Part shown: positions 16,022 through 39,482 of the stretch, in pieces
How positions within the stretch are numbered: position 1 is the first letter of the stretch
Layout of the letters: each line of letters begins with the position of its first letter
Origin: Nitrospirota bacterium
Lineage (GTDB): Bacteria; Nitrospirota; UBA9217
Length of the DNA: 64,000 bases
NCBI GenBank assembly: GCA_963818475.1
Contig: CAWFSF010000006.1
Location: 1,408,001 to 1,472,000, forward strand
Direction: 5' to 3'
The notes under the pieces: model-generated
Databases searched by the model: none
What the model saw: only the letters and a program-made list of their open reading frames with translations
What the model was told of the DNA's origin: nothing
Translations under genes and position numbers: made by a program

Positions 16022-16699
16022 TCAGACGGCCAGCAAGGTACCCTGGTTCATGCGGAGATGGCGTTTCGTCTGCCTCGCCAGGTCGGTATTATGGGTGACC
16101 ATGATGAACGTGACCCCTTTGGACCTCGTTCATGGTCTTAAAGAAACGCATCATGTCCCCTTCCGTCTCTTCATCGAGGTCTCCCGTAGGCTCGTCGGCC
16201 AGCACCAGGGCCGGATCGTTCATAAAGGCCCGGGCGATCGCCACCCGCCGCTGCTGTCCGCCGGACAATTGCGCAGGATAGACGTTGATCTTGTCCGTGA
16301 GGCCGACCATGCTGCAGCAGTTCTTCCGCCTTTCGCCGCCTCCTGCCCGGCTGCGCGCGGCCTGAAGACCGTGGGCAGCAGAAGGTTCTCCTTGACCGTG
16401 AGTATCGGAAGAAGACTGGCGAACTGGAACATAAATCCGATCTTTTCACAACGGTATTCCGAGACCCGGTCGCTTGCCAGCGCATAGATATCCTCGCCGT
16501 CGAACAGGACCTTCCCCGAGGAGGGACGGGTAATGCCGCCGATCATGGACAGCAGGGTGGTTTTGCCTGAACCGGAGTGTCCGACGATCGAGATGAAATC
16601 TCCCTTGTCGATCCGCAGAGAAACGGAACGAACGGCGTCGATGGGAGCGTTATCGACGAGGTAGGTCTTGGTGATATTCTCAACAATGATCTGCGGCAC
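16022..16699 (-). CDS. LolD/MacB-type ABC ATPase, cluster A (frameshifts)
   Basis: [43 protein letters not shown]. Confidence 0.9.
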
Positions 16700-16702
16700 G
16701 GA

Positions 16703-17901
16703 TTACTCCTGTTTGATCACGAGCAGGGGTTCCAGCTTTTTTAAGCCGTTGGACCGGCGACAGCGCCCCCAGCACGCAGATGCCGGTCCCGAACAACAGG
16801 CCGGCAAGAGCGATGACCGTACGGGTGAACGTACTGAGGTCTACGGGGAGATTTTTCAGGATCGAAAAACTTTGCGCCATGATGAACGTCAGTGTTGTTC
16901 CCGCGATAATGCCGACAATGCTTCCTATCGCACCGAGCACAAGGACCTCAAAGAGGAACAATGTTCACCACATGTCGCTCTTTCGCACCGAGAGCACGCA
17001 TGATACCGACCTCCCGCGTCCGCTCGTTCGCAATGGCGGTGAAGATCGCCCACACCAGGAAGAGCGAAAGAACGGTTGAAAGGACCATGGTGAGATAGAA
17101 GATCTTGCTGATGTCCCCCAGGGTGGTGATCAGGCTCTTTCCGATGTCCTTGCGCATCACGACGTCCAGTTCAATGATATTGTTCTCGATCTCGGACATG
17201 ACCGTATAGGGGTCCGCGCCCTTTTTGAGCTTGGCGAAGATCACGGATATCTGGTCCGGCTTGATATCTGCATCGCTGTTCTTGATGATCTCGTCGATGT
17301 TCTCATCGCTGATGAACACCGCGGTATCGAGGCCTGAGCCGGTCTTGTCCAGTACGCCGACCATGCTGAACACGCTGCCGAACAGCTTCGCCTCCATCTC
17401 CACCATTCCAAGATTGATATTATAGGCCGACTCGCTGCCGACGATGGCTTCCCCTTTTCGCAGCTTCCGTCCCAGTTTGTCTTTCAGCCAGGGCGTAACA
17501 ATGAAGTCGGTCTCCTGGTTAAAGGCAACGACCATGGATGACGGAACGGAACAGCAAAGTCCGGTAAGCGTTACCAGATAGGTCTGAGCGGAAACCTTAT
17601 CGATGCCCTCGATCTTTTTGATCCGGTCAAGAAAGGACTTGTTCATGTAGAAGGACGTGGCACGGTTCTCTACCAGAATGTCCTCTGCCCCTCCCCGGGC
17701 TCCCGTAGGCACGATCAGAAGGTCGGCGCCAAGGCGGTCCGACGTCAGCTTGATGCTTGAATTAACGCGCGTGACAAAGGAGAGGGCAAAAACGAGAGCA
17801 GCCACCATCAGGGACAGCGCCGCCACGAGGATGCCGGTCCGGAGGGGCCGGCGGCGCAGGTTACGGAAAGCCATGGATGAGAGCGTAAATTGATCAGGCA
17901 T
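16703..17901 (-). CDS. MacB/FtsX-type ABC permease with periplasmic Cys-Cys motif, cluster A (frameshifts)
   Basis: RNLRRRPLRT, RLGADLLIVP, LTGLCCSV, ERTREVGIMRALGA; ends PLLVIKQE*. Confidence 0.88.
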
Positions 17902-17920
17902 AGTGTTTTAGCAGGCAAAT

Positions 17921-17956
17921 AAAAACCTTCTCTGCGGAATATCCCGCAGAGAAGGT
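17921..17956 (-). terminator. Hairpin/terminator between propeller A and its permease
   Basis: ACCTTCTCTGCGG...CCGCAGAGAAGGT, T-tract on minus strand. Confidence 0.7.
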
Positions 17957-17985
17957 CAGGACGTTTCAGCTATTGGATCTTTATA

Positions 17986-19133
17986 CTACTTCTTCCAGTT
18001 CGTGTCAAGGCCGCAAAGAACAGCATTCTTGTCGCCGAGACCCATGCCCTTGTGGCATGCCAGGCAGACCGAGGTGGACTTGTCGGACAATTTCTTCGCA
18101 TCAGCATCATAGAACATGAGCGTGCCGTCGGTGATGTCAACGCCCTTGCCCTCTTTTACGATCGCCTTGCCGTCGGCATCGCAGCCGGCAGTCACGGTAC
18201 GAACCGTCAGCATGGCATACTTGTCGTCAGGCGTCGTCTGTGCATCGTGGATCTGGTTTCCGGCCGGCATCATCTTCTCGTCGATCAGGGTCAGGGTCTT
18301 TGCATCGAGCACCCAGAGGCGGTCGCCTGCCGACTGATAGATGCGGGTTCCGTCGTTCGAGAAGTACTGGCGGAAGGTGATGGTCTTGTCCGGCTCACCC
18401 TTCAGCGTGTTCTTGGCGATCTTCTTGAATTTGCCCTTTTCAAGCGATGCCATATCAACAAGGATGAAATCGATGGAGCCGTTGCCTTTGCCGTCCTTGC
18501 TGCCTGATTGAGCACCAGAAGGAAGGTCTTCATGTCAGGCGAGTTGATGCCGTGCGTGAACTTGTACGTCCCCTTTTCATAGCCCAGGTCGCTCACCCAT
18601 ACCCGTTCCTTGTGCTTCATCGTGGCCTTGTCAAAGACATCGACATAGCCTTCCTGGCCCATGAACACCGGCATGTAGAAACCCTTGCTCTGGCCGGATG
18701 CGCAATAGAGCGGCGGCTTCGAGCCACCTGCGCTGGCATCGGGGTCCATGGCAACATCCTTGATCACGTTGCCGGTCTTGAGGTCGGACTTGCCTACATG
18801 CTGCTTGCCCTTCGGGTCAAGCACATAGGTTGACCAGAACATGGTGTTCGGATCGTTCGCATCGATACGTGCGTCATGGGTCGGATGGGTCTTCTTGTCA
18901 CCGATAACAATGCGGTCCAGGTTGGTCACTTTGATCGGCTCATTTTCATTGCTCGGGTCGATGGTCACATCGGCCTTGGCAAAGTGGCCGCCCATACCGG
19001 CAACATAGGTTGTGCCGCTGTAGGTAGTGCCTGCTGCGATGGCGACCGGCGTTGTGGAATCAACGGTCGTAAAAGCAAGGTAGCCCATAACAACAACTGC
19101 GCATATGGTCAGTACAACGAAAACCTTTTTCAT
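17986..19133 (-). CDS. Secreted His/Cys-rich beta-propeller protein with C-terminal CxxCH (propeller A; frameshift near 18500)
   Basis: Joined ORFs 18402..19217 and 17986..18453; ATG 19133 after GGGAGG; signal peptide; blade-like repeats THDARID, YCASGQS, THGINSPD, FRQYFSNDG, IHDAQTTPDD, LCGLDTNW; CLACH. Confidence 0.75.
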
Positions 19134-19275
19134 ACTGTTCCTCCCTATTATAATATTATTTAACATCATACTTGATACATGTTTGTTCGAGTGTTCGACA
19201 TAATACTTCTGTAGCACGTTGCCCCTAGCACCTCCTTGGTATTATATAAAGAGCATATTGCTTATGATTATACAC

Positions 19276-19326
19276 AGTATCACAGAGCTATAACAAGGTC
19301 GTCAACTTCAAATTCTAATTTTACAT
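19276..19326 (-). promoter_or_regulatory. sigma70-type promoter with operator abutting -35, cluster A
   Basis: Minus strand ATGTAAAATT-AG-AATTT-GAAG-TTGACG-N18-GATACT with extended TG. Confidence 0.6.
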
Positions 19327-19801
19327 CATTGATAGCGGCTCCGCGTGGCCCTTGTTGCATAATCCGTTAACTTCATTACTATTGTTCTTTCGCCTGAGCG
19401 TTTAAAGGTCAGCACGATACGAAGCTCCGTCCCCGCCTGCATGGTCCGCGGCAATCTTAAAGATCATGATATGCTTGCCGGCCGGCCTCAGCACAAGAGT
19501 GCTGTTCGCGGGGACGTCCATGCCGGTGACGGTCGTCATTTTCCCGTCTTTCTTCGTCATGCAGTTCCGTTATCGCTCCGGGCATATCCGTACGGGCAGA
19601 CAGAAGCCGATCGTCGCCGTTTCCCGTGTTGACGATCTTCATGAACACCGATGCAACGCCCAGTATGACAGGCGACAGTTTTGCCTCGGGCTCTTCGACC
19701 ACGATCTGAGGCTCTCCGGGAGAGCACGCGGCTCCTCCCAGAAGGAAAGCGACCAGAACTGCCAAGATGGTGCAGATGAGAGGATTCGCCTTCAGGGGCA
19801 T
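19326..19801 (-). CDS. PCuAC copper chaperone lipoprotein (frameshifts)
   Basis: Lipobox AAC; ASVFMKIVNTG..DDRLLSA; ELH...GKM...LRPAGKHIM (H-xn-M...H-x-M); LTFKRSG. Confidence 0.85.
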
Positions 19802-19825
19802 AGCCAGATCCTTCCCTTGTACGCG

Positions 19826-20524
19826 TTATTTTGCAGCGGTTCCCTTTGCAGGAGGCGCAGCAGCGCCCTGAACCTCAGGCGCAAAGGTGGTACCGCCGAG
19901 CTTTTCAGCGATCACTTTATTCTTTTTCTGCGCCTCAGCTGTGTTCCCAGCACGTTCGTACAATTTAGCCAGTTCCACCGTGGCAATCCCCGGCCCGAGA
20001 ACCGCCTCCGCCTTTTCGAATGACGCTATGGCTTCACTCTGTTTGCCGAGCGCACTATACACGTACCCCATACGCTGATAGGCCAGTCCGACCAGATCCT
20101 TATCAACGAATTTACTTTTTGGCAAGGGTTTCGTATTCCCGAAGGGCCTCATTCGGGCTGGTTGAGCTTTACGAGACAATTGCCGATGTAGAATTGCGCG
20201 ATTGCGCCGCTCATCGTGCGGGGATACTTTTTTTGCACATCGCGGTACCGTTCGAGCGCCTTTGCATAATCAGGCGCAGCACCGCGCCTGCTCCTGATAC
20301 AGTCCCTGTGCGGCGGCAAGCAGTGCGGAGGCTTTTTTGTCGTTGCTGGACTGAAAAAGCGTATAGCCTGCGGCAATGACGACCACTGCCGCCAGGACAA
20401 CGACGGCTATCGTAAGGTTCTTCTGGTACAGCGAAACGAGATCAAGGGCCTTGTTCGCGATGGTCATGAGCTGCGGCTCCGCATGCTTTGACGCGGCAGA
20501 GCCTTTCTTCTTTATCATATGCAT
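19826..20524 (-). CDS. Membrane-anchored TPR protein, YfgM-like (two frameshifts)
   Basis: N-terminal TM segment, YPRTMSGAIAQFYIGN, TPR helices across ORFs 20270..20524, 20149..20400, 19826..20179. Confidence 0.7.
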
Positions 20525-20602
20525 CCGTACAACCTCCTCAGATGGAATTCACCGGCATTTTCTTATCCGATGCGGAATAATCACGATCGTTACGAGCGCT
20601 TG

Positions 20603-21259
20603 TTAAACCTGTCCAGTGCCAGCGACCGACAGCTCCTTCGAGTTCCTGAACGCGACTGCGATCTGGTCCGCGGTCAGACCGGCCCCCCTGAGCACGGTCT
20701 CCGCGAACTCGCTGGTGATCAGGTCGCCCGGTTCATGGGTATCCGTGTCGATCACGAGTTTCGCACCCGCTTCAACGGCCATCTTCGCCACATATCCATT
20801 GGAAAGGCTGTGGCCCTTGCGCGATGATATCTCGAGATGAACGCCTTTCCGCGCAGCAAGTTCAGCCTCCTCCCTGGTGATCAGGCCGGGATGGGCGAGA
20901 ATATCCACCCCGGCTTCGATGGCAGCACGGTTCGTGCCCGGATGGACCGGCTCCACCAGCGTTTCTCCATGGGCGACCACGATCGCGGCGCCCAGGGAGC
21001 GCGCCTTCTGCGTCAGTTCGGCAAAGGTTTCCGGCGGGATGTGCGTCAGTTCGATGCCCGGCAGCGCGATGATCTTCCATCGGCGGTTCAGTTCCTTGCA
21101 CGCTGCGGCCACCCGCGGGATCGTAAAGTCAAGGTTCGAGGAATCGGCGTGGTCGGTGATGGCGATCACTTCGTAACCCTTCATGACCGCCCGGCGCACG
21201 AGCTCCGACGGCACCAGCACGCCGTCGCTGAACAGAGAATGAGTATGAAGATCGATCAT
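20603..21259 (-). CDS. PHP-domain protein (putative histidinol-phosphatase-like)
   Basis: IDLHTHSLFSDG, ITDH, GIELTH, HGET, LAHPG, DTDTH. Confidence 0.88.
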   Translation of the reverse strand: MIDLHTHSLFSDGVLVPSELVRRAVMKGYEVIAITDHADSSNLDFTIPRVAAACKELNRRWKIIALPGIELTHIPPETFAELTQKARSLGAAIVVAHGETLVEPVHPGTNRAAIEAGVDILAHPGLITREEAELAARKGVHLEISSRKGHSLSNGYVAKMAVEAGAKLVIDTDTHEPGDLITSEFAETVLRGAGLTADQIAVAFRNSKELSVAGTGQV

Positions 21260-21360
21260 GGCAGCTCCTTAAGTAGTTGCATCGCAGAACGCGCGGAGCG
21301 TTCGGCGTTTAAAGCATCCCCTCCTGATCATGGATCCCGTTTTCAGGGAAGGCAGACACT

Positions 21361-22308
21361 TCACCGCAGACGCCGCTTGCCCTGGAACGCCTCTTGCCGC
21401 GCCATATACGCGTCAAGGTCGTTCAGCAGTTCACTGCGGGTCTTGTTCCAGACCGGAGCAATGAGGATCTCATCGGGAGCAGCGGCAAAAAGCCGCTGCA
21501 GCACGATCTCCGGGGACAACCGCTCCAGAAAGTCGGACAGCATTTCGATGTATTCATGATAGCCGAAGGTCGGAAAAGGCCGTTCTGCATAGAGATCGGC
21601 AAGCGCCGTTTCCCTGACCACCTGGAGTTGATGGATCTTGAGGAATTCGATGGGAAGCTGTGAAAGTTCATCGGCCATACCGAGCATCTCTTCCCGCGTT
21701 TCGGTCGGGAAGCCGAGGATAAGGTGCGCCCCGATGTGAATGCCCCTGCCGGCGGTCAGTTCCAGTGCATGTTTGAAACAGGCGTAGTCATGCCCCCGAT
21801 TGATGAATGCCAGCGACTTGTCGTAGATCGACTGAAGTCCGTATTCGACCAGGATAAAATGATCACGGCCCAGCCGTTCCAAAAGCGCGATCTTTTCCTC
21901 GTCAACACAGTCCGGGCGGGTCCCGATGGCAAGCCCCACGACACCCGGGTTATCGAGTGCCTGGCGATAGAGCCGTTCGAGGATATCAACGGAAGCATAG
22001 GTGTTCGTGTAGGGTTGGAAATAAACGATGAACTGTTCTGCCCCATAGCGGGAGCGGAGGTAGGGTATGCCGTTCGCGATCTGTTCCTTGAGCGATGCAG
22101 TGCTCGTGCAGGCCGACGGCCTGAAGCTGTCGTTATTGCAGTAAATACAGCCGCCCGTGGCAACGCTGCCGTCCCGGTTGGGGCAGGTAAATCCCGCGTC
22201 CACGTTCACCTTGTAGACCGGCCGGTGGTACAACTCCTTCATATACTGCCCGAAGGCGTTGTAACGCCTGGTCGTTGTCTTTTTATCGGATAGAGCTGCT
22301 GCCTTCAT
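21361..22308 (-). CDS. TIGR01212/YhcC family radical SAM protein
   Basis: GFTCPNRDG...GGCIYC, YFQPYTNTY, IGTRPDC, EYGLQS, INRGH. Confidence 0.9.
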   Translation of the reverse strand: MKAAALSDKKTTTRRYNAFGQYMKELYHRPVYKVNVDAGFTCPNRDGSVATGGCIYCNNDSFRPSACTSTASLKEQIANGIPYLRSRYGAEQFIVYFQPYTNTYASVDILERLYRQALDNPGVVGLAIGTRPDCVDEEKIALLERLGRDHFILVEYGLQSIYDKSLAFINRGHDYACFKHALELTAGRGIHIGAHLILGFPTETREEMLGMADELSQLPIEFLKIHQLQVVRETALADLYAERPFPTFGYHEYIEMLSDFLERLSPEIVLQRLFAAAPDEILIAPVWNKTRSELLNDLDAYMARQEAFQGKRRLR

Positions 22309-22445
22309 GGCTATGACCTGTTGCCGAGGATCCCTGGAGTATGGACAATAATTGGATTTGTTAATATACCAGAGGCAATGGAGAAAAATCCAGAAAGGAA
22401 TTTATCCGGGGCCCCGCTCAGGCGGCCCCGGACGGGTGATCGCAT

Positions 22446-22779
22446 TTACAGGTCAGCGTACTTCCGGGTGGATTCCACGACGATCAGGAGCGCCCCGAGC
22501 AACAGGACGACCAGAAAGATCTGCTGGGTCCGGCCCGCGTTCGTGCTGGTCAGTTGGGTGACGGCACCAATGGCCAGCGTCGCTGCAAGGACGAGCTCAG
22601 CGATCACCAGCTTTTTGGGCTGTACCGCCGGGAGCTCAAAGGTCTGGACCGCCAGAAGGACCAGTCCGATACAAAAAGAACGCCATGTCCCCCTTTATTG
22701 CCGTAGCGCCGACAAGAACGAGCAGGACCCCGAGATTGATGAGAATGTTCTTTAACATATCGCTTTTCTTTTCCGTCAT
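22446..22779 (-). CDS. Small multi-pass membrane protein of about 110 aa (one frameshift; absent from ORF track)
   Basis: ATG after GGGGGA; MTEKKSDMLKNILINLGVLLVLVG...QIFLVVLLLGALLIVVESTRKYADL*. Confidence 0.6.
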
Positions 22780-22881
22780 GGTTCCCCCTTTACCCTTTCA
22801 TATGATCAAGCTGGTGAAAAACTGGATCATTATATCGACGCCTCGTACAATCGTCAATCCTTTTTTATTCCCCCATGCATA

Positions 22882-23283
22882 TTAACGATCCACGACAATC
22901 CGGCCCACAGCATCAAAGAACCCCGATGCATCGGCCAGCAGTGCCTCCACCTCGTGCCGGGAGATCATGTTGAGCTGGGGAACCGAACATTTTGGTTTAA
23001 GCTCGAATAATCTACGAAGGGCATGGAAAAAGCGCTGATCGATCTCTCCGGTATTGACGAACTCCTTTTCGAACAACGCGACCGATACACTCTGCATAGC
23101 TGCAGGAATTCCCCTGGTATGGAGAAGCGCAAGCGCAGGATAATACATCGCATAATACAGGCTGTTCACGACATATTTCAGCTCCGCATTGTCAGCCAGC
23201 AGGCCCCGCGCATCTTCGAGCGCTTCATTGGCCTGCGCCAGCTTGAGCCGGGCATATTCCCTGTGCGCCTTGTTTACTTCCAT
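22882..23283 (-). CDS. Stand-alone HEPN-domain protein
   Basis: AxEALEDAR.LL, NSLYYAMYY..LALL, FEKEFVNTG, EA..F helical pattern. Confidence 0.75.
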   Translation of the reverse strand: MEVNKAHREYARLKLAQANEALEDARGLLADNAELKYVVNSLYYAMYYPALALLHTRGIPAAMQSVSVALFEKEFVNTGEIDQRFFHALRRLFELKPKCSVPQLNMISRHEVEALLADASGFFDAVGRIVVDR

Positions 23284-23313
23284 CTGCGCCTGCTCCCGAT
23301 CGCCGCTTATAGC

Positions 23314-23769
23314 CTATCTCGTCCAGACCGCTGTTCTGCCGATCAGCGAGATGCCGATGAAGCCCCGCAGGTTCAGCTGCGCGGGCGAAACGAGCGTCAG
23401 CTTGCCTCTGTAGGTCCTGCCGTTCTTCGGATCGTAGACACGGCCGCCGGACCATGTATTTTCACCGGCATAAGAAAAATCGCGCACGATCTGAAGGCCG
23501 ACGACCGGCGAGCTCCGGAGGTTCCTGTCAGGGTTATTATGGTCGACCTTCGGCGTTCCCGGAACACCCTCGTTCGACCCCTCAGGATAGTTCGGCGCCT
23601 TGAGCCAGACGATCTTGCCGCAGTAGTTATCGCCGCATTTTTGGATCTCGATCTTGGCGTCCTTCTCCTGATTGTTCCAGACGCCAAGGATATCGTCTGC
23701 GCCAGCAGCATACGCAGCGGCCGCGATCATTTGCAACAGCATGATTACCAGCAGAATGGTTTTTTTCAC
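23314..23769 (-). CDS. DUF2147 family secreted protein
   Basis: ILGVW, GKIVW, D.NNPD..LR, WSGGRVYDPKNGRTY, LRGFIGISLIGRT..WTR. Confidence 0.9.
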   Translation of the reverse strand: MKKTILLVIMLLQMIAAAAYAAGADDILGVWNNQEKDAKIEIQKCGDNYCGKIVWLKAPNYPEGSNEGVPGTPKVDHNNPDRNLRSSPVVGLQIVRDFSYAGENTWSGGRVYDPKNGRTYRGKLTLVSPAQLNLRGFIGISLIGRTAVWTR

Positions 23770-23776
23770 AAGCCCC

Positions 23777-24617
23777 TCACTGTATCAGCGATCTCACGAC
23801 CTTCATATTCTTCGGGTCGTCCTCTTCCGTTTTTTTCGGTGTCTCCATGATTTTAGGCACATTCTTAAAAGCCGGATGGTTGAGCAGCAGTTTGAAACCG
23901 TCAAGGCCGATTTTGCCTTCGCCTATATGCCAGTGCCGGTCTACATGCGAGTTCAACTCCTTCAGGCAGTCATTGAGATGCATCCCCTTTAACTGCGCCA
24001 GGCCGACCGTGGAAGCTATCTTGTCGGCAAGACTGTTCACGCCCTCTTTTGTGCGGATATCGTAGCCTGCGGCAAAACCGTGGCAGGTGTCGTAGCAAAG
24101 CCCGATATGATCCGTATTGGAAAGCCGCGATATGACCTCCTGCACCTGCTCCAGCGTGTAGCCCACATCGCCCTTTTCCCCTGCCGTATTCTCCAGCAGA
24201 ATGGTCGCTTTCGGCTTATGGAGCTTCATTGCCATGTTCAGCGCACTCGCCACGCGCTCGATCATCCAATCCTCGCTCTGACCGCTTGCAGATCCCAGAT
24301 GCGTGACCAGATATTCAGCGCCCAGGGTCTCGGTCCGTTCAAGGTCGATGACGAACTGCTCGATCGACTTCTCATACAGATCCGGCTTTGACGAAGCGAG
24401 GTTGATGAGGTAGTTCGTATGCACGAACACCGGCGCGATGTCCAGGTTTTCGCGCAGCTTTTTGAATTCGGCCACGTCGGCTTTATCGAGCGGCTTGACG
24501 GTCCAGCCGCGCGGGATTCCTGCTGAAGATCTGCATGCAGGTGCAGCCCAGCTCGGAAGCGCGTTCGACCGAACTGGCAAAACCGCCGCTGATGGAGACA
24601 TGAAAGCCTATTCGCAT
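23777..24617 (-). CDS. nfo: Endonuclease IV (frameshifts near the 5' end)
   Basis: MRIGFHVSISGG, HTNYLINLAS, LENTAG, DTCH, HLND, DRH, METP. Confidence 0.92.
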
Positions 24618-24645
24618 ATGCTCATCCCGCCGATTAAATACCAGT

Positions 24646-26787: not shown

Positions 26788-27978
26788 CTATCTTCCCCCG
26801 GCTTCGATGAGCGACTCATTTACCACGGCCATCGCATCCTGGTTGCGTTGAGTTATTGTTCGCTTATAATAAAATTTTCCTTCTTTTTGCGCCGTTTCGT
26901 TCTGCTTAACTTCTTTCATCAAAACCAATTTTCCGCCCGCGACGCGGTAAAAACTCTCCACATAGAGCTGACCCGCATCTCCGTAATCGTTGAAGACACG
27001 AATTTCCTGGACATCCGGCCCACTGACCGAATCAGGCAGCATCGCTCCGGCGAATGGAATGAACATGGATTTTTTCCTGTTGTAAATATAATAAAGGTAG
27101 CCTGCCCGGGTCCCATCGTCGCGCATGCACAACAGTTTAAGGTCCTTGTTCCAGTGCGCATTAAAATCTGCAGCAATCAGCAATCCTACTCCGCCAGGTG
27201 ATGGTCCGCATTCAAAATCTCCGTATTTGAATGTCTGATGAATCTTGTTTTCGCCTTCCCGTACTATATCTATGCGCGAAAGGTTTTGTTCTCTGTTGAA
27301 CGTTATATAAAAAGAGTAGTTTTGCTGTTCATCATCCATTGAGTAGCTGTAAACATATTTCCTTTGAAATGCGGCCGTCGTTTCCACATTCGATACAAGG
27401 CCATTTTTATAACGAGCCAATCCCTCCATGCGATTCCTGATCATATTGGCATGTTTATACCCCGGATTCAGCTTCAACGACAGATCATAGTTCCCGATAG
27501 CGCAGTCCGGCAGGCCCTCATCGTAACAGAGGTCCCCCAGGATCAAATAGGTGTCCCATCTGTCAGGGTTGATATCGACCACCCGATTCAAACAGGCCTC
27601 GGCCAAGAGATAATATTTGCTGCCCATCTTGAAATAAGCCTGCCCGAGGTTGAGCAGCACGTCAACATGCGCAGGACAGGCCAAGCCGGCAGTGAGCGCA
27701 AGACCATCGGCTTTTTTCCACAACGCAACGGCCTCCTGTCGCTTCGTCTTGACAAACATCTGAAGCGCCTCATTATTTAAACGTTCGATTTCCCGGACCG
27801 TTTGTTCGCCGGATGGAGGCGGGTCTTTGGCCACAGCGACGAGAGGGAACACAAAGGGAGTAAGACTGATAAACAAAGCGGTGAGCAGGAAGCAGTTCCC
27901 CCTGAATGACCGGCATGTTACTTTAGCATGAGAAACGGTGCGAAACGTGTATGCCACGACAGTGAACCTCCCTACCAT
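26788..27978 (-). CDS. Secreted TPR protein with C-terminal beta-rich domain; more AT-rich than its neighbours
   Basis: Signal-like N-terminus, TPRs (LNLGQAYFKMG, LILGDLCYDEG), ADFNAHWNKDL motif. Confidence 0.65.
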   Translation of the reverse strand: MVGRFTVVAYTFRTVSHAKVTCRSFRGNCFLLTALFISLTPFVFPLVAVAKDPPPSGEQTVREIERLNNEALQMFVKTKRQEAVALWKKADGLALTAGLACPAHVDVLLNLGQAYFKMGSKYYLLAEACLNRVVDINPDRWDTYLILGDLCYDEGLPDCAIGNYDLSLKLNPGYKHANMIRNRMEGLARYKNGLVSNVETTAAFQRKYVYSYSMDDEQQNYSFYITFNREQNLSRIDIVREGENKIHQTFKYGDFECGPSPGGVGLLIAADFNAHWNKDLKLLCMRDDGTRAGYLYYIYNRKKSMFIPFAGAMLPDSVSGPDVQEIRVFNDYGDAGQLYVESFYRVAGGKLVLMKEVKQNETAQKEGKFYYKRTITQRNQDAMAVVNESLIEAGGR

Positions 27979-31664: not shown

Positions 31665-32026
31665 GGAGTGGTCTCCCCCGCCTGTTTCGGCGCCGGTCGG
31701 AAGACGGACGCTTCGTTCCTGATTTCATCGGTCAATCGGTCAAGTTCCTTCTCCAGCAAAACGATCTCGGTCAGCGACGCCGCGACCTTCTCGTCCTGCA
31801 GCAGCTGCTCCGTCAGTTTGGGCAATGATCCGGAATTGTTCAATTCCACCAGGGTATGGCCTATGATGCGGTATTGTTCATTGACGCTTTCCTGAACATT
31901 GTCGACCCTGATCCGGAGACGCACGATGTTCAGCTCCGCCCGGACCCGTTCAGATAACGTGGCTGCTGCAGCCATCAATTTGTCCGATCCCTTCTGCATG
32001 TTCGAAACGACTTTTCCCCAGATCAT
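31661..32026 (-). CDS. Hypothetical coiled-coil protein
   Basis: 121-aa helical ORF, RBS GGAG, overlaps pilD start. Confidence 0.65.
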   Translation of the reverse strand: MIWGKVVSNMQKGSDKLMAAAATLSERVRAELNIVRLRIRVDNVQESVNEQYRIIGHTLVELNNSGSLPKLTEQLLQDEKVAASLTEIVLLEKELDRLTDEIRNEASVFRPAPKQAGETTP

Positions 32027-32107
32027 ATGATGGTGACTCCTTTAAAAGGGGCAAGGGGATCAGATTGCCGGAAGTGCAACCACCCTTACGCCTTCCCGTT
32101 TTTTGTC

Positions 32108-32142
32108 CCTGACTCCTGAACCCTGCACTCAGAACCCTGCAC
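32108..32142. repeat. Degenerate 7-bp tandem repeat x5
   Basis: cctgact cctgaac cctgcac tcagaac cctgcac. Confidence 0.65.
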
Positions 32143-32186
32143 CTTGGCTCCTGTTTTTTTTACTCTATCAGAATGCCGTGGAAATA

Positions 32187-34637: not shown

Positions 34638-34867
34638 AGGTTATATTCAGGACAATACTAGAATATTTTAAAGTTTTTGTCGAGGAAAAGAGCACTCATC
34701 GGGTAAAACCCTTACCTTATTTTTCATCAGTCGTGGTTAGAAGTTAACAGGTTTTCCCACGTCCCCCTGACCTTTTTACTGCTGATTATTTCCTTGCAAA
34801 CACCTTGTTCTTATGGTAAGGTAGCCATCTTTCGGGCAATCATTTTCACATATGGAGGAATATTCTC

Positions 34868-35062
34868 GTGGCAGGTAAATGCGAAATTTGCGGTAAAGGC
34901 AGGCTCAGCGGCAACAAAGTGAGCCACGCTAACAACAAAAGCAAGAAGGTCTCCAAGCCGAATGTGCAGACCGTCAAGGCAGTGGGTCCCCATGGCGGCA
35001 ATGTTCGCGTCCATGCATGCACGCGCTGCATCCGCTCCGGCAAGGTTAAGAAAGTCAGCTAA
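34868..35062 (+). CDS. rpmB: 50S ribosomal protein L28
   Basis: CEICGK..SGNKVSHANNK...PNVQ...CTRCIRSGKV. Confidence 0.95.
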   Translation: MAGKCEICGKGRLSGNKVSHANNKSKKVSKPNVQTVKAVGPHGGNVRVHACTRCIRSGKVKKVS

Positions 35063-35085
35063 ACCAGTCCGATCCCAGCTACGCA

Positions 35086-35123
35086 TATGCCCTCCCCCTT
35101 TAAGGCGGAGGGCATTGTTTTTT
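35086..35123 (+). terminator. Terminator after rpmB
   Basis: ATGCCCTCC...GGAGGGCAT followed by T-tract. Confidence 0.7.
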
Positions 35124-35279
35124 GTTACGCCTTAACCTCTGCAGCAAGCAACTCCTCACAGCCGGCAATTCGGAAACCCGAAAACTCCGGTGTTTTTTCG
35201 GTTCCACACCCCTTCGCGATCACCGGGAAAACCTGTTTCAAAAAGGGACATCCTTTTGAAAACTGGATGTAAATCTAAC

Positions 35280-35336
35280 ATGTAAAATTGTAATTTTACA
35301 TTGACACCGTCGATTCCGGGGATTAAAGTGTCAATG
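35280..35336 (+). promoter_or_regulatory. Palindromic operator plus sigma70 promoter, cluster B
   Basis: ATGTAAAATT-GT-AATTTTACAT perfect palindrome (35280-35301); TTGACA(35301)-N17-TAAAGT; second inverted repeat CATTGACAC-N20-GTGTCAATG. Confidence 0.7.
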
Positions 35337-35457
35337 TGAAACACAGTTTTATTCTTGCTGTGAAAAAGGGAAATCTCACGAGAAAGCGGGATCACTGACA
35401 CGCGTACAAATCACCTGGACACCTATCGTGCCCGGGATAATAAAGGGAGGAATCATT

Positions 35458-36471
35458 ATGAAGAAAAGTATCATAGTTTTGCTCGTTGTTCTCAGCATCT
35501 TCGGTCTTGTCGTGGCAGTACAGGCCGCAAACGAACTGAAGGGAACCATGTACGTTTCTGGCCATGGCGGACATCTCGCCATCATAGACCTGGCCACTCT
35601 GAAGGAACCCACTGACGTTGAAAAGGACCGTATCGTCATTACCGAAGCAGGCTCTGAGATGGAAGGCAAAATTGCCGGCATGGACTTTGCTGCGGTGAAG
35701 AAGTCCGGCGGTTCGCACGGCAGTTCGCTTATCGACAAGACGCTTTATGTCGGCCTGCTGAACGGCACCGTGGTAACGTACGATCTGAAAACCGGAAAAA
35801 AATCAGCGCCCATCGCTGTCGGCAAGAAATTCTGCGACGCAGTGGTCGGTCCTGACGGCAACATCTACCTTGAAGACATGGCCGACGGGCATGTCTATAT
35901 TTTCGATCCGAAAGGCTTGAAGACCGTGGACAAGCTGCCGGTCGGTGCTGCAGTATGCGGTATTGCCTGGACCAAGTCCCGCGACAAGGCTTATGTTTCC
36001 GACATGCCCCAGGGAAAGATCTTCGTCATCGACTGGAAAACGAAAAAGACGGTAAAAGAGATCACCGATCCCGAGTTGACCTTTATCCACCAGCTCCGCA
36101 TGACCAATGACGGCAAGCAGGTATGGGTTGCAGCCGCAAATGAATACGATCCAGGCCTCAAGCCCGGCACCCATAAGTCGCAGATCGTCGTGATCGACAC
36201 AAAGACCGACAAGGTCGTAGAGCACATCGTTCTTCCTGACACGCTCAGGGCCCATGACGTGAAGTTCTCTCCCGATGGAAAAACAGCACTCGTCAGCGGT
36301 CGCGATTACGCGACCAAAGACGGCGCCATCGGAATCATGGACGTCAAGACCCGTAAGATCGTGAAAACCGTATCCATCTGCGCAGGCTGCCATAAGGCTG
36401 CCGGTGTTACGGTAACGATCGACGATGGCGCACCGCTCCTGTGCGGCATGGCTATTGACTGGAAGAAATAA
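35458..36471 (+). CDS. Secreted YncE/YVTN-like beta-propeller with His/Cys ring and C-terminal CxxCH (propeller B)
   Basis: ATG after GGAGG; signal peptide ending VQA; blades SHG, FCDAVVGPDG, VCGIAWT, IHQLRMTNDG, AHDVKFSPDG, LCGMAIDW; CAGCH. Confidence 0.82.
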   Translation: MKKSIIVLLVVLSIFGLVVAVQAANELKGTMYVSGHGGHLAIIDLATLKEPTDVEKDRIVITEAGSEMEGKIAGMDFAAVKKSGGSHGSSLIDKTLYVGLLNGTVVTYDLKTGKKSAPIAVGKKFCDAVVGPDGNIYLEDMADGHVYIFDPKGLKTVDKLPVGAAVCGIAWTKSRDKAYVSDMPQGKIFVIDWKTKKTVKEITDPELTFIHQLRMTNDGKQVWVAAANEYDPGLKPGTHKSQIVVIDTKTDKVVEHIVLPDTLRAHDVKFSPDGKTALVSGRDYATKDGAIGIMDVKTRKIVKTVSICAGCHKAAGVTVTIDDGAPLLCGMAIDWKK

Positions 36472-36502
36472 ATCGTATACTATGCCGCACGTAGGTTAAC
36501 GC

Positions 36503-36546
36503 CGGAGGGCGGGGAATAACCCGCTCTCCGTTTTTTTATTTTTTTC
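36503..36546 (+). terminator. Terminator between propeller B and its permease
   Basis: CGGAGGGCGGG...CCCGCTCTCCG followed by long T-tract. Confidence 0.75.
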
Positions 36547-36588
36547 ACTGCTGCCTATTTCATCTCCGAAGGAAAACCGCGCATCGTT

Positions 36589-37784
36589 ATGAATATCCCC
36601 TATGTAGCGCTTAAGAACCTGAAACGGAAGATCACGCGGACCTGGCTGCTCTTTGCTATCGTAGCTGTTGTTTCGGGTACGCTCTTCACGGCCACCCTTT
36701 TTTTAAAGAGTATTAACAACGCGCTGAAGCTCGGCACCTATCGCCTCGGCGCCGATATCCTGGTTGTGCCGGCAAGCGCCGAGACCAGGGCCAAGGCAGC
36801 GCTCCTGTCCGGAGAGCCGACGCAATTTCTTATGAACAGATCGGTGCTCGATCAGGTGCGAAAGATCGAAGGGGTCAAGGCCGCCACGCCGCAGCTCTTT
36901 CTTAAACCAAGCAGCTTCTCCTGCTGCTTTAACGTGGAAATTTTTCTCGTTGCCTTCGACCCCGAGACCGACTTTACCGTAAAACCCTGGCTCGAAAAAC
37001 ACCTGAACAGGCCCCTGGGCCCCAACGAAATCATTACCGGCCGTGAGATCCCGGTCATCGCCGGCGACAATATCCCCTTCTTCGGCACAACGTTTAGCGT
37101 GGTGGGAACCATGGAACCCACGGGGATGGACTTCTTCGACCGCACGGGTTTCATGAGCCTTGATGGCGCCTACAAAATGGCAGAAGATTCAAAATTAAAA
37201 GCACTCCAACCGCTCGATATCAGCCGAGACCAGGTTTCCACCGTCCTGGTACAGGTCACCGAAGACTTCAGCCCCGACCGCGTCGCCATCGGATCGAACA
37301 TGACATACCCGACGTCAAGGCACTGACCTCCGACACCGTCATCAGCACCGTAAGAAAACAGCTTTCGGGCCTGATCCGCGCCATTGTCATTATCAGTGTC
37401 ATACTCTGGTTCATCGTCCTTTTGATCATGGCCTTTGCGTTCTATATGATCGTCAACGAACGCCGACGCGAGATCGGCCTGCTGCGCGCCATGGGAGCGA
37501 ATCGTGGCCATATTGCTGCGATCGTTCTGACCGAAGCGTCGCTGCTATCAGCCGCAGGCGGGGCCGTGGGCGTTCTGCTTGGGTTCGGCCTGCTGATGAG
37601 CATCAAAAGTCTGCTCCTCCATTACCTGAAGCTTCCCTATCTGTTCCCTTCATCGCCTGAGTTGATCGTTCTGACCGCGGGAGCGATATCCCTTTCCATC
37701 CTGACCGGCCTGCTCTCGGCGTTTTTGCCGGCCGTCGCCATCATCAGGACCGAGCCCTACGAGGCCATAAGGAGCGCAGAATGA
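36589..37784 (+). CDS. MacB/FtsX-type ABC permease with periplasmic Cys-Cys motif, cluster B (frameshift near 37290)
   Basis: KNLKRKITRT, RLGADILVVP, SFSCCFNV, ERRREIGLLRAMGA, EPYEAIR. Confidence 0.88.
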
Positions 37785-38377
37785 GATCTATTCTTACCAT
37801 TATTCTGCTGCTGACCCCAGTCATGTTCTCCTGTTCCCGGGATGCCGCCAAACCGGCAGCGCCGGTTGCTGAGCAGAAGAACGACATCCAGCTCTTGCGG
37901 GAACAGATTCAGAACAACCCGCAGGACGCCGAGGCGTTGTATCAACTCTCCGAGCTCTATGATCGTGCAGGCTTGTTCCAGGAAGAGATCGACACCCTGC
38001 GCAAGGTAGTTGCCATAAAGCCGGACATGGGATATGCCTATTTCAAGCTGGGGACTGCCTGCAACAGGATCGAACAGTACCAGGAGGCGGTGGCAAACTT
38101 CACCAAAGCGACGAAGTTGATCCCCAACCAGCCCATGGTATACAACAACCTTGCCTTCTCCTATGGAAAACTCGGTAAAACGGACCAGGAGATCGCAACC
38201 CTGAAAAAAGCGCTTGCCATACGGCCGGGCTATAACATCGCCCGCTTCAACCTCGGTATGGCTTACCTTAGATCAGGACAGCAAAAGGAAGCGCTGCAGC
38301 AGTATACGGTCCTCAAGGAACGGGACGAGGGGTATGCAGCTGCGTTAAAAAAAGAGATCGATTCCAAAAGGAGATAA
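37781..38377 (+). CDS. TPR lipoprotein
   Basis: Lipobox FSC; about 4 TPR repeats. Confidence 0.85.
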   Translation: MRSILTIILLLTPVMFSCSRDAAKPAAPVAEQKNDIQLLREQIQNNPQDAEALYQLSELYDRAGLFQEEIDTLRKVVAIKPDMGYAYFKLGTACNRIEQYQEAVANFTKATKLIPNQPMVYNNLAFSYGKLGKTDQEIATLKKALAIRPGYNIARFNLGMAYLRSGQQKEALQQYTVLKERDEGYAAALKKEIDSKRR

Positions 38378-38785
38378 TTGATGCAACGGTTGATGAAAAT
38401 GTTTTTCCCGGCGTTTTCAATAGTACTTTTCTGTTCCCTTTCCGCATCTGCAGAGATGATACAATGCGCTCAGTGCGGCATGGGGGTGGACCTCGACTCA
38501 AAGTTCACGTCCAGGATCGTTCAGCCAAAGCAGACCCGGCATTTCTGCGATATCGGCGACCTCTTCGCCTATCTGAAAACAAACCCTTCTGCCGCTGCCG
38601 AGGCACAGGTCAGGGATTATCGGTCCGGAGAGTGGGTCAACGCCCAGCAAGCCTACTATGTAAATTCTGCAAAGAAGTTTCAGACACCCATGGGCTGGGG
38701 CATCGCAGCATTTAAGAACAAACCGGAGACCGCTGAATTCGGAAACGCGCTGAATTTCAATGATATGACGAAAAGCCTGAAATAA
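38378..38785 (+). CDS. nosL: NosL-family copper-binding protein
   Basis: CAQCGM, FCDIGDL, VRDY..GEW.NA..AYYV, TPMGWG.AAF. Confidence 0.88.
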   Translation: MMQRLMKMFFPAFSIVLFCSLSASAEMIQCAQCGMGVDLDSKFTSRIVQPKQTRHFCDIGDLFAYLKTNPSAAAEAQVRDYRSGEWVNAQQAYYVNSAKKFQTPMGWGIAAFKNKPETAEFGNALNFNDMTKSLK

Positions 38786-38818
38786 GACCCTCCCGGGCGT
38801 GTGCAAGAAAGGAATGTC

Positions 38819-39482
38819 ATGATCGAGCTGAAAGACCTGTCAAAAACTTATAGGGTATCAGACCGGACCGTCAATGCGGTCCTGCCGGTCACATTGTCCA
38901 TCAACCAGGGAGACTTTGTGTCCATTGTCGGACACTCCGGGAGCGGCAAAAGCACGCTGCTCAGCCTGATCGGCGGAATAGCGAAACCCGACAAAGGGAC
39001 CGTGGTCATAGACGGCACCAATATCCGGGACTATGACGACCGGAAGCTTTCAAAATTAAGAAATGACAAGTTCGGGTTCGTCTATCAGTTTGCCAGCCTC
39101 ATCCCCACGCTCACGGCCAGGGAGAACGTCCTGCTGCCGACCGTTTTCGGTCAGACAAAAAAACGATACCGATGCAGTTCAATTGCTTCACCAGGTCGGT
39201 CTGGGCGACAAGATCGACCGCTACCCCTCCGAGCTTAGCGGCGGCGAACAACAGCGCGTGGCCATAGCACGCGCCTTTATTAACTCGCCCGAGGTCATCC
39301 TTGCCGACGAGCCGACCGGCGACCTCGATGAAGAGACCGAGGCGGAGATTATGGCGTTCTTCGAAAAGATCAATAAAGAAAAAAAAGTCACCATGATCAT
39401 GGTGACCCACAGTTCAGAGCTTGCGCTCCGGGCCGCCAGCCGGTTCAGGATGAAGCAGGGAACGCTGGAAAAGTTGAATTAG
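38819..39482 (+). CDS. LolD/MacB-type ABC ATPase, cluster B (frameshift near 39165)
   Basis: [43 protein letters not shown]. Confidence 0.9.

Follow-up and report, generated by a model that had tools for sequence, protein, structure and literature searches.

Paired beta-propeller and MacB-type ABC transporter clusters in a Nitrospirota bacterium that resemble a nitrous oxide reductase assembly line

NosDFY and NosL load the CuZ site of nitrous oxide reductase (NosZ) through an ATP-driven conformational change, and the type VII transporters MacB, LolCDE and FtsEX presumably perform their periplasmic work by mechanotransmission. Thiocyanate dehydrogenase and methanethiol oxidase coordinate their metal with His ligands, not Cys. 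Gene clusters of a clade III (lactonase-type, L-NosZ) nitrous oxide reductase were reportedly presented by He et al. in Nature in 2025. These clusters are known here from PMC13685413, a 2026 review, and bioRxiv 10.64898/2026.07.10.737647. According to PMC13685413, an ABC complex loads the central metal site of NosZ in the periplasm, using Cu(I) from the lipoprotein NosL, and the clade III clusters lack nosDFYL, encoding b-type cytochromes together with ABC components that include a MacB-type one.

The window, i.e. the whole stretch of 64,000 nucleotides analysed here, contains two clusters, A and B, whose layout the initial annotation had compared with nos and regarded as undescribed. The different propeller, the MacB-type ABC transporter and the NosL or PCuAC genes all stand, but a precedent exists: the kind of system is partly in print, because clade III nosZ clusters pair a MacB-type ABC with b-type cytochromes. 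The plan shared with clade III comprises a Sec-type lactonase/YncE-like beta-propeller, a MacB-type ABC and b-type cytochromes, which in clade III take the place of nosDFYL, and the hosts in both cases are anaerobic Nitrospirota and Desulfobacterota. The propellers of the window, at 337 and about 381 aa, are shorter than NosZ and have putative Cys ligands and a CxxCH, which NosZ does not have. When compared to the NosZ/NosDFY/NosL systems of clades I and II, a NosL homologue is held in common, whereas the NosD beta-helix is missing, the ABC is of type VII (MacB/FtsX) and thus differs from NosFY, the putative ligand set is His plus Cys instead of seven His, the propellers lack the cupredoxin CuA domain, and NosL is often replaced by PCuAC or an FtrD-like protein.

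Other periplasmic propellers were also compared. Thiocyanate dehydrogenase and methanethiol oxidase have a central copper, which is putative in our propellers; the former was among the weak matches (E 0.015-0.2 by sequence, TM 0.48-0.53 by fold), though these are no better than those to generic WD40 proteins. The automatic name of an adjacent Atlas cluster is 'putative methanethiol oxidase', and the MtoX model did not match P0001 or P0126. Propeller B resembles the cytochrome cd1 family (NirS, NirF, NirN), scoring 37.1 on Pfam Cytochrom_D1 (gathering score 25.5), and among solved structures it matched NirF (E 1.7e-5) and hydrazine synthase beta (E 7.9e-6). However, the Pfam match is partial, covering the last third of the model, propeller A has none, there is no N-terminal cytochrome c domain, and the hydrazine synthase beta model gives 38.7 bits against a cut-off of 560.

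Two paralogous clusters with conserved His and Cys

Table 1. Features of cluster A (16022-20540, minus strand), cluster B (35458-39482, plus strand) and adjoining genes.
Feature	Positions	Strand	Basis
ABC ATPase A, LolD/MacB-like nucleotide-binding subunit	16022..16699	-	Pfam ABC_tran 69 bits
Permease A, FtsX/MacB type, periplasmic Cys-Cys	16700..17901 (approximate)	-	MacB_PCD 36.3, FtsX 33.9 bits
Spacer propeller A/permease A, 15-bp hairpin then T5	17902..17985	-	Fold energy
Propeller A, about 381 aa read through	17986..19133	-	Translation, family alignment; no Pfam/NCBIfam match
PCuAC-type copper chaperone lipoprotein, in three frames	19329..19801	-	Pfam PCuAC 23.3 bits, orthologue profile
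TPR protein A, about 237 aa in relatives	19826..20540 (upstream limit approximate)	-	Pfam TPR
Propeller B, 337 aa, intact	35458..36471	+	Translation, family alignment
11-bp G+C-rich hairpin then T7, propeller B/permease B	36503..36530	+	Terminator-like site, spacer fold
Permease B, FtsX/MacB type, Cys-Cys	36589..37784	+	FtsX 68.2, MacB_PCD 23.8 bits
TPR lipoprotein B	37781..38377	+	Pfam TPR families; lipobox-like MFSC read by eye
NosL-family protein with CxxCGM	38378..38785	+	Pfam NosL 40 bits (gathering score 24)
ABC ATPase B	38801..39482	+	Pfam ABC_tran on both pieces
b-type cytochrome	39876-40637	-	Pfam Ni_hydr_CYTB 38.8 bits
Multihaem cytochrome c, seven CxxCH counted	40570-41472	-	Pfam cytochrome c7/c3 families

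The gene content and order agree with the initial annotation, to which a TPR gene is added as a further member of cluster A (Table 1). The b-type and seven-haem cytochrome genes run convergent with cluster B and are possible electron-transfer neighbours. Four ORF sets of the window (14, 12, 22 and 22) were scanned with Pfam or NCBIfam, covering all non-antisense ORFs of at least 300 aa and part of the small ones; no nosZ, nosD or oxidase family was matched among them, in line with what had been stated earlier. A six-frame hmmsearch of the window with both propeller profiles returned the two known propellers and no third.

The clusters were described as paralogous, and the propellers, permeases and ATPases are each related far beyond chance. 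The permeases share 33% identity (E 1e-39) and the ATPases 53% (E 5e-42). For the propellers, BLASTP gives E 1e-7 in the N-terminal part and 7e-14 in the C-terminal part, and hhalign a probability of 99.4% over 305 columns (E 1.7e-21), so that by sequence comparison propellers A and B are true paralogues. The motifs read from them (Y..G.GGH, DR(I/V)V(I/L), HD, S.C..CH and LCG...W) show little or no variation across the family alignments. Propeller A has an N-terminal hydrophobic helix, a GMGGH loop and a C-terminal CxxCH...C; propeller B has a Sec-type signal peptide, a GHGGH loop and CxxCH at 308-312. The N-terminal export or anchor helix contains no twin-arginine motif in either. Among the relatives listed, CxxCH is present in 120/120 of B and 119/120 of A, and both families have a conserved Cys 13-17 residues C-terminal of it. 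A short helix is predicted at the CxxCH of propeller B.

Conserved blade positions are H87, C126, C167, H211, H266 and C329 in propeller B, and H86, C144, H194, R254, H295 and C373 in propeller A. By the strand assignments (DSSP) of the AlphaFold models (pLDDT 84.5 and 85.3), the conserved His and Cys lie at the first strand of each blade, their geometry being deduced from strand positions alone. From the hhalign alignment, the two propellers differ in blade 3 (Cys vs His) and blade 4 (His vs Arg), and H87 is variable among distant B-like proteins. Homology searches, which had been proposed for both propellers, matched no characterised family. The propeller A family has no Pfam or NCBIfam match, propeller B groups with lactonase/YncE-type propellers, and structure searches returned generic propellers (TM 0.4-0.6). 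In one distant B-like representative, P0367, a cytochrome c domain is inserted (Pfam PF13442, 31.4 bits).

The permeases have the MacB periplasmic core and FtsX C-terminal domain of type VII transporters, although MacB_PCD on permease B stays under its gathering score of 27; the ATPases resemble LolD. The noted permease motifs RLG.D, CC and DF...PW are (nearly) invariant in the family alignment, and the ATPase motifs GHSGSGK and [12 protein letters not shown] are found in the translations. An invariant Cys-Cys and an obligate propeller neighbour set the group apart from MacB, LolCDE and FtsEX, whose equivalog cut-offs are missed. The periplasmic Cys-Cys occurs in 120/120 A-type permeases among the relatives listed and in the B permeases of the window, L045 and L051. 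A further FtsX permease in the same loci, the one linked to NosL, lacks it.

As for the accessory genes, the PCuAC piece of the window stays under the Pfam gathering score of 29.4; intact orthologues score 65.7-82.9 bits, and their profile matches three frames of the window DNA. Homologues of TPR protein A lie upstream of PCuAC in 10/63 loci of the survey below, and those of TPR lipoprotein B lie 3' of permease B or A in L045, L051, L052 and L053. Several cluster neighbours are lipoprotein-like, with lipoboxes judged by eye.

Recurrence of the module in other genomes

Gene neighbourhoods were surveyed in 63 genomes (63 loci, L-numbered), all collected through the A-type permease; B-type synteny is therefore limited to the window, L045 and L051. 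Propeller A is directly upstream of the permease in all 57 loci with at least 1300 bp upstream, and in 60/63 overall, the remaining three being cut by contig ends. An ATPase follows the permease in 52/55. The propeller, Cys-Cys permease and ATPase thus form a tightly conserved module.

The proposed linkage to copper chaperones was surveyed in the same loci. PCuAC is found in 23/63, NosL in 14/63 and an FtrD-like four-Cys lipoprotein in 20/63. When only the 40 fully flanked loci are considered, 28 have PCuAC or NosL within 5 kb and 34 have one of the three; the other six are L007, L023, L045, L046, L055 and L063. PCuAC occurs without the other types in 22 of the 63 loci, NosL/FtrD-like without PCuAC in 21, both in 1 and neither in 19, with genome relatedness uncorrected. 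This near-mutual exclusion is as expected of interchangeable suppliers.

NosL and the FtrD-like protein (PF10080) occur together in 12/63 loci, in a second, convergent module that includes an FtsX-type ABC where mapped. The Campylobacter P19/cFtr1 iron-uptake locus likewise combines a DUF2318 protein with an FtsX-type ABC. In contrast to the propeller modules, this second module has no propeller, its permease lacks the Cys-Cys, and it is absent from the window.

Multihaem cytochrome c genes were found in 11/63 loci, and in L045 such a gene shares a same-strand array with both modules. By sequence, the multihaem cytochrome adjoining cluster B is no orthologue of those in the loci, its match to the one of L045 being weak (E 9e-4). 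The host lineages are rich in multihaem cytochromes.

A possible copper-loading route and its competitors

We favour, with a probability of roughly 0.45, a reading in which the propeller is a Sec-exported copper or copper/haem redox protein, loaded by a mechanotransducing ABC transporter through a Cys-Cys relay. The apoprotein would cross the membrane unfolded via Sec. Lipoprotein chaperones (cluster A would use PCuAC and cluster B NosL, other lineages NosL plus the four-Cys FtrD-like lipoprotein) would pass Cu(I) to the Cys-Cys of the permease periplasmic domain; Cox17 binds Cu(I) and MerT binds Hg(II) through vicinal Cys-Cys pairs. Cytoplasmic ATP hydrolysis would then cause a conformational change, as in MacB, LolCDE and NosDFY, that moves the metal into the propeller centre, and the CxxCH may hold a c-type haem or supply additional metal ligands. 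The hairpins 3' of the propeller genes, described below, point to propeller made in excess of the ABC. On the other hand, PCuAC and NosL could serve other enzymes. A chaperone gene is missing within 5 kb from 6/40 fully flanked loci, and from 19/63 in the DNA covered. Such strict invariance of CxxCH is seen more often for haem c than for copper sites, NosZ copper motifs are missing, conserved positions differ between A and B, and H87 varies.

It is doubtful that the propeller is instead an abundant periplasmic binding or carrier protein of the MacB-type ABC, and not an enzyme. Comparable to a substrate-binding protein, or to AztD, a zinc chaperone that works with a transporter, it would take up or free a thiophilic metal, be it Cu(I) or a different soft metal, for anoxic homeostasis or detoxification. 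The strict three-gene module and the metal-chaperone neighbours suit such a role, as do the hairpins: the spacer behind propeller A folds with -30.6 kcal/mol (z -5.6), and z is below -2 in 51/56 propeller/permease spacers of the window and loci. A hairpin after the first gene is common behind binding-protein genes. The fold matches include cobalamin-binding BtuG propellers, and AztD is likewise a periplasmic beta-propeller metal handler encoded beside an ABC transporter. But its NCBIfam model gives 18 bits against a cut-off of 400, and AztABC, an importer that includes a binding protein, belongs to another ABC type. Also, the surveyed neighbourhoods showed neither an outer-membrane channel nor a MacA-like adaptor, redox chemistry is indicated by the P0367 insertion and the multihaem neighbours, and the conserved ligand residues, up to ten, are probably more than a carrier site usually needs.

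We consider it unlikely that the propeller binds a His/Cys-ligated c-type haem with no involvement of copper, the ABC handling haem or thiols or keeping Cys reduced, and the copper chaperones adjoining by chance. SoxAX and TsdA are sulfur enzymes with His/Cys haems, and the MacB-type HrtBA exports haem. The CxxCH, invariant in 239/240 relatives listed, with its predicted helix and downstream Cys, and the multihaem-rich hosts agree with this. Left unexplained are the recurrence and mutual replacement of the PCuAC, NosL and FtrD-like genes, and the conserved His and Cys away from CxxCH.

The frameshifts raise the question of whether both clusters are pseudogenes decaying in the source genome. 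At least ten frame-breaking indels of 1-2 nt lie in their coding sequence, affecting every gene of cluster A as well as permease B and ATPase B, while propeller B, TPR lipoprotein B and NosL are intact. They comprise several 1-nt indels relative to L002 in ATPase A, whose pieces lie in three frames, two frameshifts in permease A (about 16966 and 16736), one in propeller A (near 18450-18500), two in the PCuAC gene, indels at 20157 and 20112 in TPR protein A, and one each in permease B (near 37320-37420) and ATPase B (near 39230). The source's own protein set also contains a truncated permease, P0241, of 308 aa; full-length relatives of permease A have 398 aa. Assembly errors are likely, however, because the frameshifts are absent from intact close relatives, to which the pieces have 90-97% protein identity. 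Unrelated housekeeping genes of the window (e.g. SMC and PBP1A fragments) are split too, as are genes on long contigs named 'contig_N' (L041, L055, L063), and this would fit an indel-prone long-read assembly. Decay is therefore quite unlikely.

Membership of the propellers in NosZ of any clade is nearly refuted, as the L-NosZ model and all NosZ motifs fail, and a very divergent, further NosZ-like clade is highly improbable. Apart from the clade III-like layout and its lactonase/YncE-type grouping, propeller B has a weak match of 33 bits to the L-NosZ model (NCBIfam, cut-off 700 bits), but propeller A does not score, and both lengths fall below the 400-900 aa filter of the NosZ test. The CuA motif, GPLH and EPH each occur in 0/240 of the relatives listed, PHG in 1/240 and D/GxHH in 7/240, and Pfam finds no cupredoxin domain in the propellers. 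There is equally little chance that the ABC is a Lol-like or peptide exporter of neighbouring lipoproteins or a small product, with the propeller as cargo or accessory without a metal role: the best NCBIfam matches of the ATPases are to LolD (103-123 bits), those of the permease pieces are weak ones to LolC/E and MacB, and lipoprotein-like neighbours exist, but every Lol and MacB equivalog cut-off is missed by a wide margin (ATPase A, 103 bits against 307), and neither the Cys-Cys specific to propeller-linked permeases nor the ligand-like residues are explained.

Returning to the copper-loaded propeller, the mature protein would be a periplasmic redox enzyme receiving electrons from multihaem or b-type cytochromes. 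A redox role is suggested by the multihaem genes in the loci, the L045 array, the P0367 insertion and the two cytochromes adjoining cluster B. Our best guess for the substrate is a small inorganic nitrogen or sulfur compound. By analogy, both clusters resemble the nitrous oxide reductase assembly line, and they look like an undescribed metal-enzyme assembly system.

Gene layout and the conserved three-gene module

The two clusters stand as the initial annotation gave them, since ORF and Pfam scans of the window (G+C about 55%) bore out both the genes and their strands. It had also stated that no nosZ, nosD or oxidase gene is present, and none of those families was found among the ORFs scanned. 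The features are summarized in the table below. The stretch between the clusters holds housekeeping genes (DNA ligase, RecG, a sigma-54 two-component pair and prepilin peptidase). A six-frame search of the window with both propeller profiles gave no third propeller, and no Rfam family reached its gathering score there. Near the window end lies an IS481/IS3-family transposase fragment (61734-62522, plus strand; NCBIfam 85 bits, cut-off 224). Four ORFs of 275-396 aa (26788-27978, minus; 23023-23850, 42510-43451 and 50772-51719, plus) had no NCBIfam match at E <= 1e-10, and the first three had no Pfam match at E <= 1e-5 either; some of the four may be antisense artefacts.

Features of the two clusters and of the genes facing cluster B
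Feature	Position	Strand or orientation	Cluster
TPR protein A	about 19826-20540	minus	A
PCuAC-type chaperone	19329-19801	minus	A
Propeller A	17986-19133	minus	A
Hairpin, propeller A-permease A spacer	17902-17985	minus	
FtsX/MacB-type permease A	about 16700-17901	minus	A
ABC ATPase A	16022-16699	minus	A
Propeller B	35458-36471	plus	B
Hairpin, propeller B-permease B spacer	36503-36530	plus	
Permease B	36589-37784	plus	B
TPR lipoprotein B	37781-38377	plus	B
NosL-family protein	38378-38785	plus	B
ABC ATPase B	38801-39482	plus	B
b-type cytochrome	39876-40637	convergent with cluster B	
Cytochrome c, seven CxxCH motifs	40570-41472	convergent with cluster B	

A single genome scan, using the permease alignment with A-specific peptide patterns, returned 63 loci (L001-L063), all A-type: 55 from Nitrospirota, 4 Desulfobulbales-like and 4 from Anaeromyxobacteraceae. 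The linkage of propeller to Cys-Cys permease, on which the initial annotation had built, was found again in these genomes, with propeller A directly upstream of the permease at all 57 loci with at least 1300 bp of upstream DNA. The overall figure is 60/63, and the remaining three end at a contig edge. The ATPase lies downstream of the permease in 52 of 55 loci (exceptions L051, L052 and L053). No further gene is nearly so constant around the A-type permease in the 63 loci, and the three genes form a strict module. Two loci join it with its counterpart: in L045 (4721-13493, plus) module B, module A and a multihaem cytochrome c gene line up as one array on the same strand, and L051 (1-6741, plus) carries B and A adjacent on one strand, then a multihaem cytochrome c, with no ATPase nearby. 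Therefore, the two clusters of the window are functionally linked. A single ATPase may serve both permeases of L051, or the two may form a heterodimer of the LolC/LolE kind. Multihaem cytochrome c genes occur in 11 of the 63 loci. A small conserved ORF of about 90-107 aa without a Pfam match is present in 13 loci and directly precedes propeller A in most (e.g. L029, 8222-8494). One 492-aa neighbour, considered as a lactonase-type NosZ (L-NosZ), was rejected, as its sequence by eye resembles a class II aminoacyl-tRNA synthetase, probably lysyl.

We defined a type VII permease by a MacB periplasmic core and an FtsX C-terminal domain above their Pfam gathering scores (27 and 25.5 bits). Permease A has both (MacB_PCD 36.3 bits, FtsX 33.9 bits); permease B has 68.2 bits for FtsX and, in a truncated piece, 23.8 bits for MacB_PCD, slightly under the cut-off. 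Both domains are present in the permease relatives. The two permeases are 33% identical and the two ATPases 53%. The periplasmic Cys-Cys was found in 120/120 A-type permease relatives among the matches listed, and the B-type permeases of the window, L045 and L051 have it too, as their sole cysteines. The second FtsX permease encoded at some of the same loci is without it.

Between propeller and permease genes, in the window as in L001-L063, there is a perfect hairpin of 11-17 bp, often followed by a T-run. The folding z value is below -2 in 51 of 56 spacers, both window spacers included, and a T4 or longer run is present in 33 of the 56. The hairpin is likely an attenuator or a 3' stabiliser, and its place 3' of the propeller gene suggests a higher output of propeller than of ABC transporter.

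Most of the variable neighbours of the propeller A module are lipoproteins that handle metals: of the 63 loci, 23 have PCuAC, 14 NosL and 20 a small four-Cys FtrD-like protein (PF10080). When we consider the 40 fully flanked loci, with at least 4 kb on either side, 28 have PCuAC or NosL at a distance of 5 kb or less, and to that extent the chaperone association of the initial annotation is supported; with FtrD-like proteins counted too, the number is 34, with none of the three in six. The neighbours are interchangeable: PCuAC and NosL/FtrD-like are almost mutually exclusive among the 63 loci (PCuAC only 22, NosL/FtrD-like only 21, both 1, neither 19), in a count that ignores genome kinship. 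The NosL-family protein of the window, a putative copper binder, matches PF05573 at 40 bits (gathering score 24) over model positions 9-127 of 131 and has no NCBIfam match. The window PCuAC scores 23.3 bits against 29.4 for PF04314 because its gene is split; where the gene is intact, in the orthologues of L001, L015 and L061, the score is 65.7-82.9 bits. By eye these orthologues show an H..M...HxM pattern, the spacing of which differs from that of the usual His/Met copper motif.

Other arrangements were also seen. In the Desulfobulbales loci L007 (7931-8467, minus) and L008 (7794-8345, minus), a thioredoxin-like Cys-x-x-Cys lipoprotein, TlpA/ResA-like as judged by eye, replaces PCuAC immediately upstream of propeller A. 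A second module, not in the window, is convergent with the propeller A module in L027, L029 (11879-14794, minus), L035, L042, L043 and L044 and is rearranged in L031, L034 and L036. Its genes are those for a four-Cys lipoprotein of the FtrD-like type (PF10080), for NosL, for an ABC ATPase and for the FtsX permease without Cys-Cys. In some loci a nitrilase-family gene and the gene of a multi-pass membrane protein (CC and HHC motifs) also belong to it. The module resembles the DUF2318 and FtsX ABC genes in the P19 iron-uptake locus of Campylobacter.

Two propeller families and a putative metal site

Propellers A and B are paralogous (hhalign probability 99.4%, E 1.7e-21, 305 columns). Among the matches listed, 688 homologues of propeller B and 1054 of propeller A have E <= 0.001. 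The former come from Nitrospirota, Thermodesulfovibrionales and Anaeromyxobacter and bear the source names 'cytochrome D1 domain-containing' or 'YncE family'; of the latter, every named one listed is 'hypothetical' and none listed has a Pfam domain, family A being absent from Pfam. Against a library of representatives at 50% identity, propeller B has just 15 matches at E <= 1e-30; beyond these, 3062 more reach E <= 0.001, for the most part generic YVTN repeats.

The search for homology to a described family, on which the novelty claimed in the initial annotation depended, reached, apart from one partial Pfam match of propeller B, no characterised family for either propeller in NCBIfam, Pfam or Foldseek against PDB. 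Propeller B matches Cytochrom_D1 (PF02239) at 37.1 bits (cut-off 25.5), only over model positions 228-356 of 368, and propeller A does not match it. Against the NCBIfam models for YncE (cut-off 400), AztD (400), hydrazine synthase beta (560) and PQQ-associated propeller (287), propeller B scores 40, 18, 39 and 39 bits, respectively, all below cut-off, and propeller A gives no score; the MtoX model is likewise missed by a wide margin. The AlphaFold models are confident (pLDDT 84.5 and 85.3), and their DSSP strings give 24 strands with closure by the C-terminal strand, from which we predict six blades; the best fold matches are nonetheless seven-bladed proteins with TM 0.4-0.6. Foldseek against PDB returned no specific enzyme for either model, only generic WD40, YVTN or lactonase propellers, and a PDB profile search with family A gave one match at E 0.57.

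According to hhalign and DSSP, one blade after another carries an invariant residue at its first strand, with equivalent positions in the two families.

Equivalent conserved positions in propellers B and A
Site	Propeller B	Propeller A
Blade 1	H87	H86
Blade 2	C126	C144
Blade 3	C167	H194
Blade 4	H211	R254
Blade 5	H266	H295
Blade 6	C329	C373
GGH loop	H39	H50
C-terminal CxxCH	308-312	356-360

CxxCH is present in 239 of 240 relatives among the matches listed (120 per family). Distant B-like representatives, at 27-59% identity, all keep the GGH loop, C167, H211 and CxxCH; C126, H266 and C329 are nearly invariant, and H87 is variable. Four distant B-like proteins (P0362, P0363, P0369 and P0382) have a short tail with Gly-Cys at or beside the C terminus. 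By eye, the N terminus of propeller B is a classical Sec-type signal peptide, and a twin-arginine motif is absent from both propellers; therefore any cofactor would be inserted in the periplasm. Another relative, P0367 (479 aa, 41% identity to propeller B), has a cytochrome c domain (Pfam PF13442, 31.4 bits) inserted in a loop past the conserved GSE.EG segment, which fits a redox role.

We read the propellers as periplasmic copper or copper/haem redox proteins, the central His/Cys site of which would be filled by their own MacB-type ABC transporter, with a probability of about 0.45. In this scheme PCuAC, NosL or the FtrD-like lipoprotein would hand Cu(I) to the Cys-Cys of the permease, from where it would pass to the propeller. 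Copper as the metal, transfer in that direction, haem binding and an enzymatic function are all presumed. On the other hand, the propeller might be a binding-protein-like metal carrier for homeostasis. The metal-handling lipoproteins beside the module would suit such a carrier, and the cytochrome domain of P0367 speaks for redox chemistry; we consider the carrier unlikely. A haem-only His/Cys enzyme would agree with the nearly universal CxxCH and would leave the recurrent PCuAC and NosL neighbours unexplained; we regard it as quite improbable.

Frameshifts in the window

All cluster A genes, permease B and ATPase B are split across two or three frames, and a truncated permease is also found in the source genome's own protein set (P0241). 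These breaks would be explained if the clusters were real pseudogenes in this genome only, which we strongly doubt. Alignment to L002, a relative at 89% DNA identity, shows indels of 1-2 nt within coding sequence, and the genes are intact in close relatives (propeller A 380-381 aa, permease 398 aa). SMC, PBP1A and RtcB are present as fragments only (e.g. 53348-54916, 55771-57117 and 3030-4364). As housekeeping genes are also fragmented, the frame-breaking indels are window-wide and unspecific to both clusters, and we account for them by probable indel error of a long-read assembly.

Comparison with nos systems and significance

NosZ with NosDFY and NosL is the obvious model for a propeller matured by an ABC transporter, and the clade III nosZ cluster is a nearer one. 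The module is nos-like in this pairing, but has another propeller, another ligand set and a type VII ABC. The nos parallel of the initial annotation holds in layout, with its different propeller and MacB-type transporter, but a MacB-type precedent exists. According to a 2026 review of CuZ, clade III (lactonase-type) nosZ clusters have no nosDFYL and carry instead genes for b-type cytochromes and for ABC components, including a MacB-type one. The review gives the roles of these as undefined and names maturation without NosDFY as an open question for clade III N2O reductase (PMC13685413). Another paper reports that genes for cytochromes and transporters adjoin nosZ of clade III (PMC13477213).

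In spite of the parallel layout, it is highly improbable that the propellers are divergent N2O reductases, and we reject them as NosZ of any clade. The L-NosZ model (NCBIfam NF052460, cut-off 700 bits) gives 33 bits for propeller B and no match for the propeller A pieces or P0126, the full-length proxy for propeller A; the clade I/II models TIGR04244 and TIGR04246 match neither the window propellers nor the database proteins P0001 and P0126. A NosZ filter, quoted in a preprint and attributed to the discovery paper, consists of CX2FCX3HXEM, DXHH or GXHH, PHG, GPLH, EPH and 400-900 aa (bioRxiv 10.64898/2026.07.10.737647). Among the matches listed (120 B and 120 A relatives), the CuA motif, GPLH and EPH each occur in 0/240, PHG in 1/120 B and 0/120 A, and D/GxHH in 7/120 B and 0/120 A; the propeller lengths, 337 (B) and 380-381 aa (A), are below the minimum. 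A Lol-like export system has hardly any chance either, for although LolD is the nearest family of the ATPases, the NCBIfam equivalog cut-offs are missed (lolCE 31.5 bits against 362; LolE 15-21 against 439-540; LolD 103-123 against 308, with pieces of frameshifted genes as query) and the ATPases are far under every Lol or MacB cut-off.

Full-text literature searches gave no description of the propeller-permease-ATPase module, and He et al. 2025 may already show related genes. Neither an anammox paper (PMC12758564) nor a lipoproteome paper (PMC13068155) bears on the module. Going beyond the redox reading, we tentatively suggest, and think it somewhat doubtful, that A and B are undescribed periplasmic Cu-sulfur or Cu-haem enzyme families, with the His/Cys centre built by a type VII ABC through a Cys-Cys Cu(I) relay. 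If so, the task done by NosDFY for NosZ would have a second, independent solution, which clade III NosZ probably shares; this would provide a concrete mechanism for copper enzyme maturation without NosDFY, and two widespread families would join the few periplasmic propeller enzymes with a metal centre. In their hosts, anaerobic Nitrospirota, Desulfobulbales and Anaeromyxobacter, the enzymes would reduce or oxidize a small compound of nitrogen or sulfur, in a reaction so far unassigned. These anaerobes are abundant in groundwater, sediment and soil, so the putative redox enzyme could affect the cycling of nitrogen or sulfur.
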